Assembly: GCF_050320075.1 (NCBI RefSeq) | Contig: NZ_CP190018.1 | Direction: 5' to 3' (one strand) | From: Escherichia coli | GTDB lineage: Bacteria > Pseudomonadota > Gammaproteobacteria > Enterobacterales > Enterobacteriaceae | DNA: 64,000 bases | In this document: positions 3,610 to 64,000 of the stretch, one piece after another | How positions within the stretch are numbered: the first letter of the stretch is position 1 | Layout of the letters: each line of letters starts with the position of its first letter | Program-made: the position numbers and the translations under genes | Notes under the pieces: model-generated | What the model saw: only the letters and a program-made list of their open reading frames with translations | The model's database searches: none | Told to the model about the DNA's origin: nothing

Positions 3610-4050
3610 ATGAAAAAAGTGGTTCTGATGGCGCTGGCTCTCGGCCTTTCACTGCCCGCGATGGCGAGTGAAAAAGTGATTGATATGTACAAATCTGACA
3701 ACTGTGGCTGTTGTTCCCTGTGGGGCAAGGCGATGGAAAAAGACGGGTTTGAAGTACGAACTCACGTCATGAATGATCAGGCGCTGTCAGCCCTGAAAGA
3801 AAAGCATGCTATTCCTGCAGGGCTGCGAAGTTGTCATACCGCGGTTGCCGGTAATTTGATCATTGAAGGCCATGTGCCTGCGACAACGATACATAAGGCA
3901 ATGCAGTCTGGTTCAGGTATATACGGTTTCGCCACCCCCGGTATGCCAGCAGGAAGTCCTGGAATGGAGATGGGAGCCCGAAAAGAGGCTTACGATGTTA
4001 TCGCATTCTCACCGGATGGAAGTAAAAAAGTCTTCCAGCGAATCGAATAG
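3610..4050 (+). CDS. silG: Periplasmic metal-binding protein, DUF411 / ORF96 (SilG-like)
   Basis: Signal peptide, CxxC-like GCCS motif, position between silA and silP. ATG at 3610 preferred over the track's GTG at 3604 because GAGG lies just upstream. Confidence 0.75.
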   Translation: MKKVVLMALALGLSLPAMASEKVIDMYKSDNCGCCSLWGKAMEKDGFEVRTHVMNDQALSALKEKHAIPAGLRSCHTAVAGNLIIEGHVPATTIHKAMQSGSGIYGFATPGMPAGSPGMEMGARKEAYDVIAFSPDGSKKVFQRIE

Positions 4051-4176
4051 TCAGCGGAACGGCTGATAACGGGACGCCGGTAGCAGGCACTCCTGTGCCG
4101 GCGATATTCGTGGTAATCGCATCCATGACATACCCTGAAGACAGAAGATGCTTCGGTATGCATAAGGAGAGTTACT

Positions 4177-6624
4177 GTGAAAAATGACAATGCAGTGCAA
4201 CACAACAACCAGACTGCTTCTGAGCAGACATTATCCCCGGACGAGGGCCACGTATTGCATAAGGTGAGAGATCCCGTGTGCGGGATGGCCATCCTGCCCG
4301 ACAGGGCGCACAGCAGCATTCGATACCAGGACCATCAACTTTATTTCTGCTCCGCCAGCTGTGAGAGTAAATTTAAAGCCCATCCCGATCGTTATCTTAC
4401 CGAAGATGCCAGTGAACATTCCCATCACCATCACCACGATCATCACGAAGTCAGCCCTGATCAGATAAAACAGCCTCACCACCAGGCGGAAAAAGAGAAT
4501 TCTGAAGGTGTGTGGACATGTCCGATGCACCCGGAGATACGCCGCAGTGGTCCCGGAAGCTGTCCTGTCTGTGGAATGGCACTGGAGCCGCTCGTAGCTA
4601 CGGCATCCACGGGGCCGAGTGATGAACTTCACGACATGACAAGACGCTTCTGGCTGGGGTTGTTGCTGGCGTTTCCGGTTCTGGTACTCGAAATGGGATC
4701 TCATCTGTTTCCCGAGTTGAGGAATACAGTACCGCCACAGTACAACACATGGCTGCAGCTGCTTCTGGCCTCCCCTGTCGTGTTGTGGTGTGGCTGGCCA
4801 TTCTTCGCCCGGGCCGGAATGTCGTTACGTAACCGCTCCCTGAATATGTTTACCCTTGTTGCAATGGGGACCGGCGTAGCCTGGGTTTACAGCGTCATTG
4901 CAACCGTCTTCCCCTCCTGGTTTCCTGCATCGTTCAGAAACATGGATGGCCTGGTGGCCGTTTATTTTGAAGCCGCAGCAGTTATTACGGTGCTTGTTCT
5001 GCTGGGACAGGTTCTTGAGCTGCGGGCACGGGAACAAACCTCAGGCGCCATTACTGCGCTTCTGAACCTTGCCCCCAAAACCGCCAGACGGCTGGATCAT
5101 GACGGTCATGAAACGGATATTAATGCGGAAGATGTCCTGCCTGGCGATAAGCTCCGCATCAGACCTGGAGAGAGTATTCCGGTCGACGGTATCGTGATCG
5201 AAGGCAAAACAACCGTTGATGAATCGATGGTGACCGGGGAATCTATGCCGGTTACCAAAACGGAGGGTGACCCTGTCATCGGGGGGACCATTAATCAGAC
5301 AGGGAGTCTCATCATCCGTGCAGAGAAAGTCGGTGATGAAACAATGCTCTCACGAATTGTTCAGATGGTCGCTGATGCACAGCGTTCGCGTGCCCCCATC
5401 CAGAGAATGGCTGACAGCGTTTCAGGCTGGTTTGTTCCTCTGGTGATACTTATCGCGGTTGTTGCTTTCGTGATCTGGTCTGTCTGGGGGCCCGAGCCCA
5501 GGATGGCGCACGGTCTCATTGCGGCTGTGTCGGTCCTGATTATTGCCTGTCCCTGCGCGCTGGGGCTGGCCACGCCGATGTCGATAATGGTGGGGGTGGG
5601 CAAAGGAGCCCAGGCCGGGGTGTTAATCAGGAATGCCGAAGCCCTTGAGCGTCTTGAAAAAGTGGACACGCTGGTTGTCGACAAAACAGGCACGCTCACG
5701 GAAGGTTCGCCTACGGTGACAGGGATTATCAGTCTCAATCCGGGTGGGGAAACATCTCTTTTGCGTGTAACAGCCGCAGTGGAAAAAGGCTCGCAGCATC
5801 CGCTGGGTATGGCAGTAGTTAAAGCAGCACAGGAAAAGGGGATCGCAATACCCGCAGTCACTCATTTCGATGCACCGTCGGGTAAAGGTGTCTCAGGCGA
5901 TGTCGAAGGTCAACGGGTTGTTATTGGTAATGAACTGGCTATGCAGGAAAACAGTATAGTTATTGATAATCAAAAGGCCGTTGCGGATACGTTGCGGATG
6001 GAAGGCGCTACCGTTATCTATGTGGCCACAGACGGGGACCTTGCAGGCCTGATAGCTATCTCGGATCCCGTGAAAACAACCACGCCGGATGCGCTTAAAG
6101 CTTTGCGTCAGGCGGGGATCCGCATCGTTATGCTCACCGGGGATAACCAGCTTACTGCTGAAGCAGTCGCACGGAAACTGGGAATAGATGAGGTTGAAGC
6201 CGGAATTCTGCCGGATGGCAAAAAAGCAGTGATAACCCGACTGAAAGAGTCTGGCCATGTGGTTGCGATGGCCGGAGACGGTGTGAATGATGCCCCGGCG
6301 CTGGCAGCGGCTGACGTGGGTATAGCCATGGGAACGGGTACAGATGTGGCAATTGAAAGTGCCGGAGTCACCCTTCTCAAAGGCGACTTGATGATACTGA
6401 ACAGGGCCCGTCATCTGTCAGAGATCACCATGAAAAATATCCGTCAGAATCTGTTTTTTGCATTTATCTACAACGCACTTGGCGTGCCTGTGGCTGCAGG
6501 TCTGCTTTATCCTGTGTATGGAATACTGCTGTCGCCAGTTATTGCGGCGGCGGCCATGGCTCTTTCCTCCGTCAGCGTCATTGTGAATGCGTTGCGTCTG
6601 AAAAGTGTCAGGCTCGGGAAATAA
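4177..6624 (+). CDS. silP: Cu+/Ag+ exporting P1B-type ATPase
   Basis: His-rich N-terminal stretch (HHHHHDHHE), CPC metal-transduction motif, DKTGT phosphorylation motif, GDGVNDAP hinge; GTG start. Confidence 0.9.
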
Positions 6625-56370: not shown

Positions 56371-57474
56371 ATGAACATGAAGGGTAAAGCGTTACTGGCA
56401 GGATGTATCGCGCTGGCATTCAGCAATATGGCTCTGGCAGAAGATATTAAAGTCGCGGTCGTGGGCGCAATGTCCGGTCCGGTGGCCCAGTACGGTGACC
56501 AGGAGTTTACTGGTGCTGAGCAGGCGGTTGCGGATATCAATGCTAAAGGTGGTATCAAAGGCAACAAACTGCAAATCGTGAAATATGACGATGCCTGTGA
56601 CCCGAAACAGGCGGTTGCGGTGGCGAACAAAGTCGTTAACGACGGCATTAAATATGTGATTGGTCACCTCTGTTCTTCATCAACGCAGCCAGCGTCAGAC
56701 ATCTATGAAGATGAAGGCATTTTAATGATCACCCCAGCGGCAACCGCGCCAGAGCTGACCGCTCGTGGCTATCAGCTGATCCTGCGCACTACCGGCCTGG
56801 ACTCCGACCAGGGGCCGACGGCGGCGAAATATATTCTTGAGAAAGTGAAACCGCAGCGTATTGCTATCGTCCACGACAAACAGCAGTACGGTGAAGGTCT
56901 GGCGCGTGCGGTGCAGGACGGCCTGAAGAAAGGCAATGCTAACGTGGTGTTCTTTGATGGTATCACCGCCGGGGAAAAAGATTTCTCTACGCTGGTGGCG
57001 CGTCTGAAAAAAGAGAATATCGACTTCGTTTACTACGGCGGTTATCACCCGGAAATGGGGCAAATCCTGCGTCAGGCACGCGCGGCGGGGCTGAAAACTC
57101 AGTTTATGGGGCCGGAAGGCGTGGCTAACGTCTCGCTGTCTAACATTGCGGGCGAATCAGCGGAAGGGCTGCTGGTGACCAAGCCGAAGAACTACGATCA
57201 GGTTCCGGCGAACAAACCCATTGTTGACGCGATCAAAGCGAAGAAACAGGACCCAAGCGGCGCGTTCGTCTGGACCACCTACGCCGCGCTGCAATCTTTG
57301 CAGGCGGGTCTGAATCAGTCTGACGATCCGGCTGAAATCGCCAAATACCTGAAAGCGAACTCCGTGGATACGGTGATGGGGCCGCTGACCTGGGATGAGA
57401 AAGGCGATCTGAAAGGCTTTGAGTTCGGCGTATTTGACTGGCACGCCAACGGCACGGCGACCGATGCGAAGTAA
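56371..57474 (+). CDS. livJ: Leu/Ile/Val periplasmic binding protein LivJ
   Basis: 367 aa from [23 protein letters not shown]; paralog of livK in this window. Confidence 0.92.
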
Positions 57475-57529
57475 TCATTAATCGGCAACTTTGGGTTGCC
57501 GCCAAATTGCTAATATCGAGTACGTTGCT

Positions 57530-57635
<106 letters not shown>

Positions 57636-57673
57636 TTCTCGTTGGTCATCACTTTTGAAATCAAACTTTACGA

Positions 57674-62603: not shown

Positions 62604-63317
62604 ATGGAAAAAGTCATGTTGTCCTTTGACAAAGTCAGCGCCCACTACGGCAAAATCCAGGCGCTGCATGAGGTGAGCCTGCATATCAATCAGGGCGAGA
62701 TTGTCACCCTCATTGGCGCGAACGGCGCGGGGAAAACCACCTTGCTCGGCACGTTATGCGGCGACCCACGCGCCACCAGCGGGCGAATTGTGTTTGATGA
62801 TAAAGACATTACCGACTGGCAGACGGCGAAAATCATGCGCGAAGCGGTGGCGATTGTCCCGGAAGGGCGTCGCGTTTTCTCGCGGATGACGGTGGAAGAG
62901 AACCTGGCGATGGGCGGCTTTTTTGCCGAACGCGACCAGTTCCAGGAGCGCATAAAGTGGGTGTATGAACTGTTTCCACGTCTGCATGAGCGCCGTGTTC
63001 AGCGGGCAGGCACCATGTCCGGCGGTGAGCAGCAGATGCTGGCGATTGGTCGCGCGCTGATGAGCAACCCGCGTTTGTTGTTACTTGATGAGCCATCGCT
63101 CGGTCTTGCGCCGATTATCATCCAGCAAATTTTCGACACCATCGAACAACTGCGCGAGCAGGGGATGACTATCTTCCTCGTCGAGCAGAACGCCAACCAG
63201 GCGCTGAAGCTCGCTGATCGCGGCTACGTGCTGGAAAACGGCCATGTTGTGCTCTCCGATACTGGTAATGCGCTGCTGGCGAACGAAGCAGTGAGAAGTG
63301 CGTATTTAGGCGGGTAA
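62604..63317 (+). CDS. livF: Branched-chain amino acid ABC ATPase LivF
   Basis: 237 aa from MEKVMLSFDKVSAHYG; Walker A GANGAGKTT. Confidence 0.93.
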   Translation: MEKVMLSFDKVSAHYGKIQALHEVSLHINQGEIVTLIGANGAGKTTLLGTLCGDPRATSGRIVFDDKDITDWQTAKIMREAVAIVPEGRRVFSRMTVEENLAMGGFFAERDQFQERIKWVYELFPRLHERRVQRAGTMSGGEQQMLAIGRALMSNPRLLLLDEPSLGLAPIIIQQIFDTIEQLREQGMTIFLVEQNANQALKLADRGYVLENGHVVLSDTGNALLANEAVRSAYLGG

Positions 63318-63436
63318 ATTATCGATAACCCGGCAGCTAAGTTCTGCCGGGTTATTCGTCCGTATACAGACTTGTTTCAACTGACCAGGAGGATTAAAAC
63401 CAGACCACTTATTTGCCACGGAAAGGTTCCCTCCCA

Positions 63437-64000
63437 TGCATTATGCCGTTGTTGTCATGCTTGAACTGCTTTGCTGTATTCACGCTTACCGTACCGGACA
63501 AGAGCGGTACTGGATTTTTATCATTTTCTGTTTTCCGGTGATTGGCTGCGTGGCGTATTTCGTCATAGTGATGCTGCCTGAAACGGGCGCTGACCGTCAC
63601 GGGCATACTTTGCTGATGCGCCTGCAGGACAAACTCAACCCTGAGCGCCACCTGCGCAAATTAACCGAAGAACTGGCGATTGCCGAGACCAATCAAAACC
63701 ATTATGCGTTGGCTAATGAACTGGCGCGTCTGGGGCGTTATCACGAAGCTGTTCCCCATTATCAGCAGGCGTTAAGCGGGATATTCGCCCATGAAGCGGC
63801 AATGATGCTAAGCCTGGCGCAGGCACAGTTTGCTATTCAGGAGTTCGCCGCCTGTCAGCAGACGCTGGAAGATGTGATGCGTTATAACCCTGATTTTCAG
63901 TCGGCAGACGGGCATTTGTTATTTGCCAGAACGTTAGCCGCACAAGAAAAATACGCTGATGCGGAAAGCGAGTTTGAAGTATTGATTTCTTATTACCCCG
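63437..64000 (+). CDS. Partial ORF running off the window: membrane-anchored protein with TPR-like helical repeats, function unknown
   Basis: Own translation from the ATG at 63437 (MHYAVVVMLELLCC...) is open to the window end; hydrophobic N-terminus; not in the ORF track. Start codon uncertain. Confidence 0.45.

Follow-up and report, generated by a model that had tools for sequence, protein, structure and literature searches.

The window, a 64,000-nt stretch of the Escherichia coli contig NZ_CP190018.1, ends within an open reading frame (ORF) that begins shortly after livF, with which the livKHMGF operon ends. We found that this ORF is the 5' part of a gene encoding a tetratricopeptide repeat (TPR) protein, hereafter the TPR gene. 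It is a real gene under purifying selection, as indicated by its low dN/dS (ratio of nonsynonymous to synonymous substitution rates), by the architecture conserved throughout its family and by the invariant columns of the family alignment. We consider it highly probable that this is an ancestral gene, lost in K-12-type lineages, which encodes a stand-alone membrane-tethered TPR adaptor that is not part of the Liv (branched-chain amino acid) or Ugp (glycerol-3-phosphate) ATP-binding cassette (ABC) transporters.

In the window, livF occupies positions 62604..63317 on the plus strand, with its TAA stop codon at 63315-63317 (RefSeq annotation of an identical genome, L001 11405-12118, and the ORF list). 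The first-pass annotation of this DNA had noted an ORF after livF that stays open to the window end, and this ORF is real: its ATG lies at 63436-63438 and is followed by 188 codons without a stop up to base 64000. The start had been placed at 63437, one base too late and in a frame full of stops, while the frame from the corrected start at 63436 is open. The distance to livF, described as about 120 bp, measures 118 bp, and the ORF was missing from the ORF list for the reason supposed at the time, namely that it has no stop in the window and that ORFs running off the end were omitted. The start codon position is common to all 25 aligned homologues.

An extension downstream, which the same annotation had called for, was provided by E. 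coli CFSAN061763 (NZ_CP042899.1), which contains the last 2000 bases of the window exactly and served as the identical-genome reference (locus L001; window position = L001 position + 51199). In this genome the frame closes 182 bp past the window, at the window equivalent of 64182, giving a protein of 248 aa. The window therefore holds codons 1-188 of 248 (63436..64000, plus strand; RefSeq coding sequence L001 12237-12983), with 60 further codons beyond it. In the annotation of CFSAN061763, the gene is flanked by livF and ugpB, shares their strand and encodes WP_000558842.1, a "tetratricopeptide repeat protein" of 248 aa; in O157:H7 Sakai, where the locus shows 99.7% DNA identity, it is ECs_4300. 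The ORF is thus a gene already present in public annotation and named by its domain content alone.

Of the 5426 complete E. coli genomes, 659 (~12%), O157:H7 among them, carry the TPR gene in the livF-ugpB interval, and within the species it occurs as several diverged alleles (95-100% identity). A K-12-type junction was present in 4630 of these genomes (~85%), and ~137 had neither junction type. The statement in the first-pass annotation that livF is followed by ugpB in K-12 was accurate, as K-12 MG1655 has no gene in this interval; accordingly, no conserved annotated gene was found at this position in K-12, yet one is annotated there in other E. coli (ECs_4300 in Sakai). The MG1655 spacer between livF and ugpB is 398 bp long and carries palindromes resembling repetitive extragenic palindromic (REP) elements (GCCTGATGCG...CTTATCAGGCCTAC). 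K-12 departs from the window sequence right after the livF stop codon and rejoins the carrier sequence ~180 bp upstream of the ugpB start, so that ~1041 bp of the carrier genome stand against ~215 unrelated bp in K-12. Divergence between K-12 and the window showed no clear peak near the junction, identity being 93-100% per 200-bp bin across the region; bins of 76-81% identity at L001 7400-8200 were rejected as an artefact of matches between the paralogues livK and livJ.

The first-pass annotation had proposed a strain-specific insertion, and the comparison with other enterobacteria speaks against this. The locus is indeed variable within E. coli, as the carrier count demonstrates; the gene nevertheless occupies the same slot in other enteric species. 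Every enterobacterial orthologue that could be placed follows livF directly and, in most cases, precedes ugpB, and the order livF-TPR gene-ugpB was seen in loci L003-L005, L007-L013, L015, L022 and L024-L027. These include an Escherichia fergusonii cluster (L007-L011), enteric contigs (L012, L013, L015) and Citrobacter freundii (L003-L005). A scan of one genome per species added Escherichia sp. E1V33, Escherichia sp. MOD1-EC7003, E. whittamii, E. albertii, a Pseudocitrobacter metagenome-assembled genome and Citrobacter sp. NCU1 as further carriers. Identity of the TPR protein drops with taxonomic distance, from 94-96% within Escherichia to 68-77% in Citrobacter-like genomes; LivF and UgpB of the same loci are 89-99% identical.

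The borders of the variable segment were likewise informative. One coincides with the livF stop codon and the other lies ~180 bp ahead of the ugpB ATG; neither shows a repeat, and no integrase, transposase, tRNA or flanking repeat was seen at the borders of the gene in the carrier CFSAN061763. The 1.04-kb segment consists of the TPR gene and its hairpins only and does not qualify as a mobile element or genomic islet, and insertion sequence (IS) elements at the locus were secondary insertions in single genomes only. Since the slot is shared across genera, divergence tracks taxonomy, and mobility genes and border repeats are missing, the TPR gene is most likely ancestral to Escherichia and was lost in K-12-type lineages. 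The competing scenario, recent horizontal transfer into the livF-ugpB interval as a strain-specific event, would account for the absence of the gene from K-12 and ~85% of complete E. coli genomes and for its GC content and third-position GC (GC3), both lower than those of its neighbours. It would also suit the variability of the interval, where C. freundii has Phd/Fic genes, E. albertii and E. whittamii have an additional small ORF, and MOD1-EC7003 has a SUKH-1 gene with an IS200 element. Against it stand the gene's constant position and orientation in Citrobacter, Pseudocitrobacter and at least five Escherichia species, among which identity declines with distance, the diverged alleles inside E. 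coli, the lack of mobility genes and repeats beside the gene in CFSAN061763, and an exact copy of the protein on at least 1000 public contigs. Synteny largely refutes a recent insertion, which we regard as improbable.

Several additional arrangements were observed in the livF-ugpB interval. In E. whittamii (L026 3594-3881) and in the matching stretch of E. albertii (L027), ~410 extra bp separate livF from the conserved block upstream of the TPR gene, and this sequence holds a hydrophobic small ORF of 96-111 aa (MDFLTVVLKLFCCAVVLRW...) with no Pfam match. In C. freundii (L003-L005, 6850-8324), the stretch from the TPR gene to ugpB contains a Phd/YefM-Fic toxin-antitoxin pair and two ORFs (93 and 135 aa) without a Pfam match. 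In Escherichia sp. MOD1-EC7003 (L023 4744-7971), the TPR gene is followed by a SUKH-1 (SMI1/KNR4) gene with a 4-bp overlap, an IS200-like transposase ORF, yhhA and a GFO/IDH/MocA oxidoreductase gene; the oxidoreductase occupies the position of yhhX, and the ugp operon, probably together with ggt, is missing from this stretch. Judging from such comparisons, the livF-ugpB interval is a site of recurrent gene gain and loss.

Variation was also found close by. The livJ-panM spacer of the carrier genome (L001 6330-6438; window ~57529-57637) matches the K-12 livF-ugpB REP spacer in reverse orientation with 84% identity, so that REP elements of the same type exist near the locus in the carrier. Past the window, the ugpB-ugpA spacer (L001 14660-14834) interrupts the BLAST alignment, measuring 175 bp in the window-type genome and 97 bp in K-12; a further REP-type insertion or deletion is the probable cause. 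In O157:H7 Sakai, the panM-livJ region (L021 16978-17778; window ~57400-57670) carries genes for an acetyltransferase-type toxin and an antitoxin (ECs_4307/ECs_4308), which are found in neither L001 nor K-12.

We then examined the transcription signals around the TPR gene. A GC-rich hairpin followed by UUAUUCGU lies at 63323..63358 on the plus strand, 6 nt past the livF stop codon, with a predicted free energy of -21.6 kcal/mol (z-score -6.4; 0 of 200 shuffled sequences were as stable). Its stem is conserved in Escherichia loci, and it is probably the intrinsic terminator of the liv operon; a simple terminator scan did not call it, the T-run being short. Downstream, an alignment of 99 nt around the start codon in 10 loci revealed the element GACTTGTTTCA-N8-GGAGGATTAAAA (63369..63400, plus strand). 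It may serve as a promoter or regulatory site and is conserved in six Escherichia loci, the enteric contig L015 and C. freundii L003 while its flanks diverge. Within it, TTGTTT and TAAAAC, 17 nt apart, can be read as a weak sigma-70-like -35/-10 pair; compared by eye with the sigma-E, sigma-32, sigma-54 and PhoB consensus sequences, the block fitted none. A Shine-Dalgarno-like GGAAAGG, read from the sequence and conserved in Escherichia loci, stands at 63420..63426 (plus strand), 9 nt upstream of the ATG. Past the window, the stop codon of the TPR gene is followed by two terminator-like hairpins, each with a U-run. An Rfam search of the livF-ugpB interval gave no match at E <= 1. With the liv hairpin upstream, a conserved promoter-like element before the gene and two hairpins after it, the TPR gene appears to be monocistronic and to form its own transcription unit.

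These signals bear on whether the TPR protein serves one of the adjacent transporters. If it assisted or regulated the Liv or Ugp ABC transporter as an accessory subunit or regulator co-transcribed with livKHMGF, it would be expected to lie as it does, on the same strand only 118 bp past livF and fixed between both operons in all enteric carriers, and the weak U-tract of the livF hairpin and the lack of a strong detectable sigma-70 promoter would also suit such a role. K-12 and most E. coli, however, are without the gene, and their Liv and Ugp systems work. Outside the enterobacteria, homologues in Pseudomonas (alcaligenes/mendocina-type), Exilibacterium, Lysobacterales, Bradyrhizobium and metagenome loci have unrelated neighbours, none of which are conserved. 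Clustering of 732 neighbouring ORFs from 78 distant loci returned only clade-specific neighbours and an artefact of antisense shadow ORFs. The strong hairpin between livF and the TPR gene, and the gene's own conserved upstream element, further argue against co-transcription. We therefore judge an accessory transporter role very improbable. Because of its stand-alone transcription signals, we propose instead that the TPR gene is transcribed alone and that its product is not a component of either transporter. In a comparison with anti-phage defence systems, none of the PADLOC-DB models matched the TPR protein at E <= 0.01.

Selection on the TPR gene was estimated from pairwise comparisons with the orthologues of four Escherichia-type loci and the enteric contig L015, synonymous sites being saturated against Citrobacter. 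The dN/dS was 0.07-0.21, compared with 0.01-0.05 for livF, so that the TPR gene evolves faster than livF. When 1.84 billion cluster representatives (clusters at 50% identity) were searched with a profile, 682 clusters of the family matched at E <= 1e-30, and almost all of them have proteins of 240-255 aa that align from end to end. A word-indexed search gave 41 homologues with 30-94% identity over 92-100% of the query. An alignment of 25 family members (30-94% identity) contains 23 invariant columns. Among these are H16, G21, W26, G37, Y41 and P48, in or just after the N-terminal hairpin described below, the residues S156, G159, H160, L161, L162, A164 and R165, which make up an SxxGHLLxAR motif, and Y186 and G189.

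That the ORF is a decaying remnant, a pseudogene or spurious could be argued from a frameshift near codon 185 in the E. albertii type strain, from an ISVsa5 insertion in one E. coli genome, from the loss of the gene in most E. coli and from a dN/dS above that of livF, but this is barely credible given an intact full-length ORF in 658 genomes, a dN/dS well under 1, a 245-aa architecture kept over the gamma- and alphaproteobacterial clusters together with the invariant columns, and a confident structure prediction. The E. albertii NBRC 107761 copy (NZ_BBMY01000056.1; L027 4001-4743) is matched by tblastn in two pieces, 4001-4555 and 4555-4743, with the switch of frame between them, which probably reflects either a sequencing error or a frameshift that has made this copy a pseudogene. 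In E. coli Br_112_kylling (NZ_CP182371.1 1035919-1037921), an IS4-like ISVsa5 transposase gene, in or beside the TPR gene, divides the match to the window in two.

From N- to C-terminus, the 248 aa of the TPR protein form a two-helix hairpin, a short linking helix, some four TPR repeats and a final helix that is basic. The first-pass annotation had described a membrane/TPR-like protein with a hydrophobic N-terminus, and both parts of this description are borne out, the former by Pfam TPR matches and a structure model, the latter by hydropathy and the AlphaFold helices. The hydrophobic hairpin (aa 1-47; 63436..63576, plus strand) weakly resembles PLDc_N, the N-terminal membrane domain of cardiolipin synthases. 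Its two helices, at residues ~2-18 and ~26-47, have mean Kyte-Doolittle values of 1.6 and 2.7 and are joined by the short basic loop RTGQER; in the AlphaFold model (pLDDT, the predicted local distance difference test score, 88.4) the N-terminal helices span residues 2-20, 23-32 and 34-50. Pfam PLDc_N matches the second helix with 20.0 bits (E 6.9e-4; profile positions 22-40 of 42). Of the 25 family members, 7 match it at E <= 0.01, with a lowest E-value of 2.7e-5. The presence of invariant residues within the hairpin points to a role beyond anchoring the protein.

The TPR domain extends over residues ~71-222, of which 71-188 lie in the window (63646..64000, plus strand), including S156-x-x-G-H-L-L-x-A-R165 and Y186. 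With 38.7 bits for TPR_19 (cut-off 25) and 29.8 bits for TPR_2 (cut-off 27), the protein belongs to the TPR clan, and TPR_19, TPR_14, TPR_16 and TPR_6 match all 25 aligned family members. The model shows the right-handed superhelix of antiparallel helix pairs that characterises TPR proteins. In full-length similarity, length, architecture and the SxxGHLLxAR motif, the protein falls into the orthologue group of ECs_4300 / WP_000558842.1, a family without functional characterisation, and it is not filed in any named functional family; no dedicated Pfam or NCBIfam model fits the hairpin-plus-TPR family.

We propose the following course of events and mode of action. An ancestral TPR gene would have stood between livF and ugpB, and in the lineage of K-12 and ~85% of sequenced E. 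coli, ~1.04 kb with the gene would have been replaced by a REP-containing spacer of ~215 bp. The two-helix hairpin would insert in the inner membrane and tether the TPR domain there, probably on the cytoplasmic face, and the groove formed by the four repeats would bind one or more partner proteins, the protein acting as an adaptor or scaffold. The charge pattern of the family, with on average 0 lysine or arginine residues before the first transmembrane helix, 2.2 in the loop and 3.4 in the 15 residues after the second, weakly favours a cytoplasmic TPR domain, as does the basic C-terminal helix. The catalytic domain of ClsA, which lies behind a similar hairpin, is also assumed to be cytoplasmic.

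A number of observations weigh against this proposal. On the side of ancestry, none of the Salmonella, Klebsiella and Enterobacter species representatives (one genome per species) carried the gene. The distribution of the family within Enterobacteriaceae is patchy and does not distinguish deeper ancestry from an old acquisition in this interval, before the Escherichia-Citrobacter split, that was followed by losses. In addition, the GC3 of the TPR gene (54%, against 60-74% in its liv and ugp neighbours) fits low expression and also an older foreign origin. On the side of independent transcription, a consensus promoter scan between livF and the ATG found no sigma-70 promoter, and the poor U-tract of the livF hairpin makes read-through from the liv operon into the TPR gene possible. 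As for the protein, its PLDc_N score lies below the Pfam gathering score (20.0 vs 23.3 bits), and a periplasmic TPR domain would be compatible with the weak positive-inside signal. A literature search found no functional study or paper on the gene.

Public annotation has included the TPR gene from the earliest O157:H7 genomes onwards, and the gene's description here is an ordinary finding of little discovery value. It is of use as a correction, in that the K-12 map is probably not the ancestral order in this region, K-12 representing a derived state in which a gene was most likely lost and REP elements gained. The family is conserved and apparently characterised by nobody, and as carrier and non-carrier lineages coexist in E. 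coli it can easily be studied. Tentatively, and with the odds clearly against it, the hairpin-plus-TPR family (~680 clusters in Gamma- and Alphaproteobacteria) could form a distinct, unstudied class of inner-membrane adaptors. By analogy with LapB (YciM), a cytoplasmic TPR adaptor that is anchored in the inner membrane and guides FtsH to LpxC, such proteins might link a partner enzyme or protease with a process of the envelope or of membrane lipids. If this were true, the presence of the gene in carriers such as O157:H7 and its K-12-type absence could underlie a physiological difference between E. coli lineages.

Among known proteins, WP_000558842.1 is identical in sequence and position, shows no difference and is the same gene. 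The hairpin is weakly reminiscent of ClsA and PF13396 (PLDc_N): here too, two hydrophobic helices are linked by a short basic loop, and the second of them shows a W...P.(I/L)G...Y pattern. The likeness to cardiolipin synthases and phospholipases D ends there: the TPR protein has no PLDc match and no HKD (HxKxxxxD) motifs, its C-terminal 200 residues are TPR, and the cardiolipin synthase model TIGR04265 matches residues 22-46 only (11.6 bits against a cut-off of 290). The closest known systems include the envelope TPR proteins YfgM, associated with PpiD and SecYEG, and CpoB/YbgF of the Tol-Pal system. CpoB/YbgF (TIGR02795) is the best NCBIfam match, at 31.6 bits against a cut-off of 90.1, and the TPR gene neighbours liv and ugp rather than tol-pal. 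HemY (TIGR00540) scores 16.8 bits against a cut-off of 142, and the gene lies outside the hem operon (hemCDXY). The LapB model was not among the NCBIfam matches at E <= 1. LapB has 389 aa and a single transmembrane helix, compared with 248 aa and a two-helix hairpin, and its TPRs are followed by a rubredoxin-type domain with two CxxC pairs, whereas the TPR protein ends in a basic helix and has one cysteine after residue 48. What LapB and the TPR protein have in common is an N-terminal membrane anchor followed by a TPR array at the inner membrane, a likeness that we use as a working analogy only.
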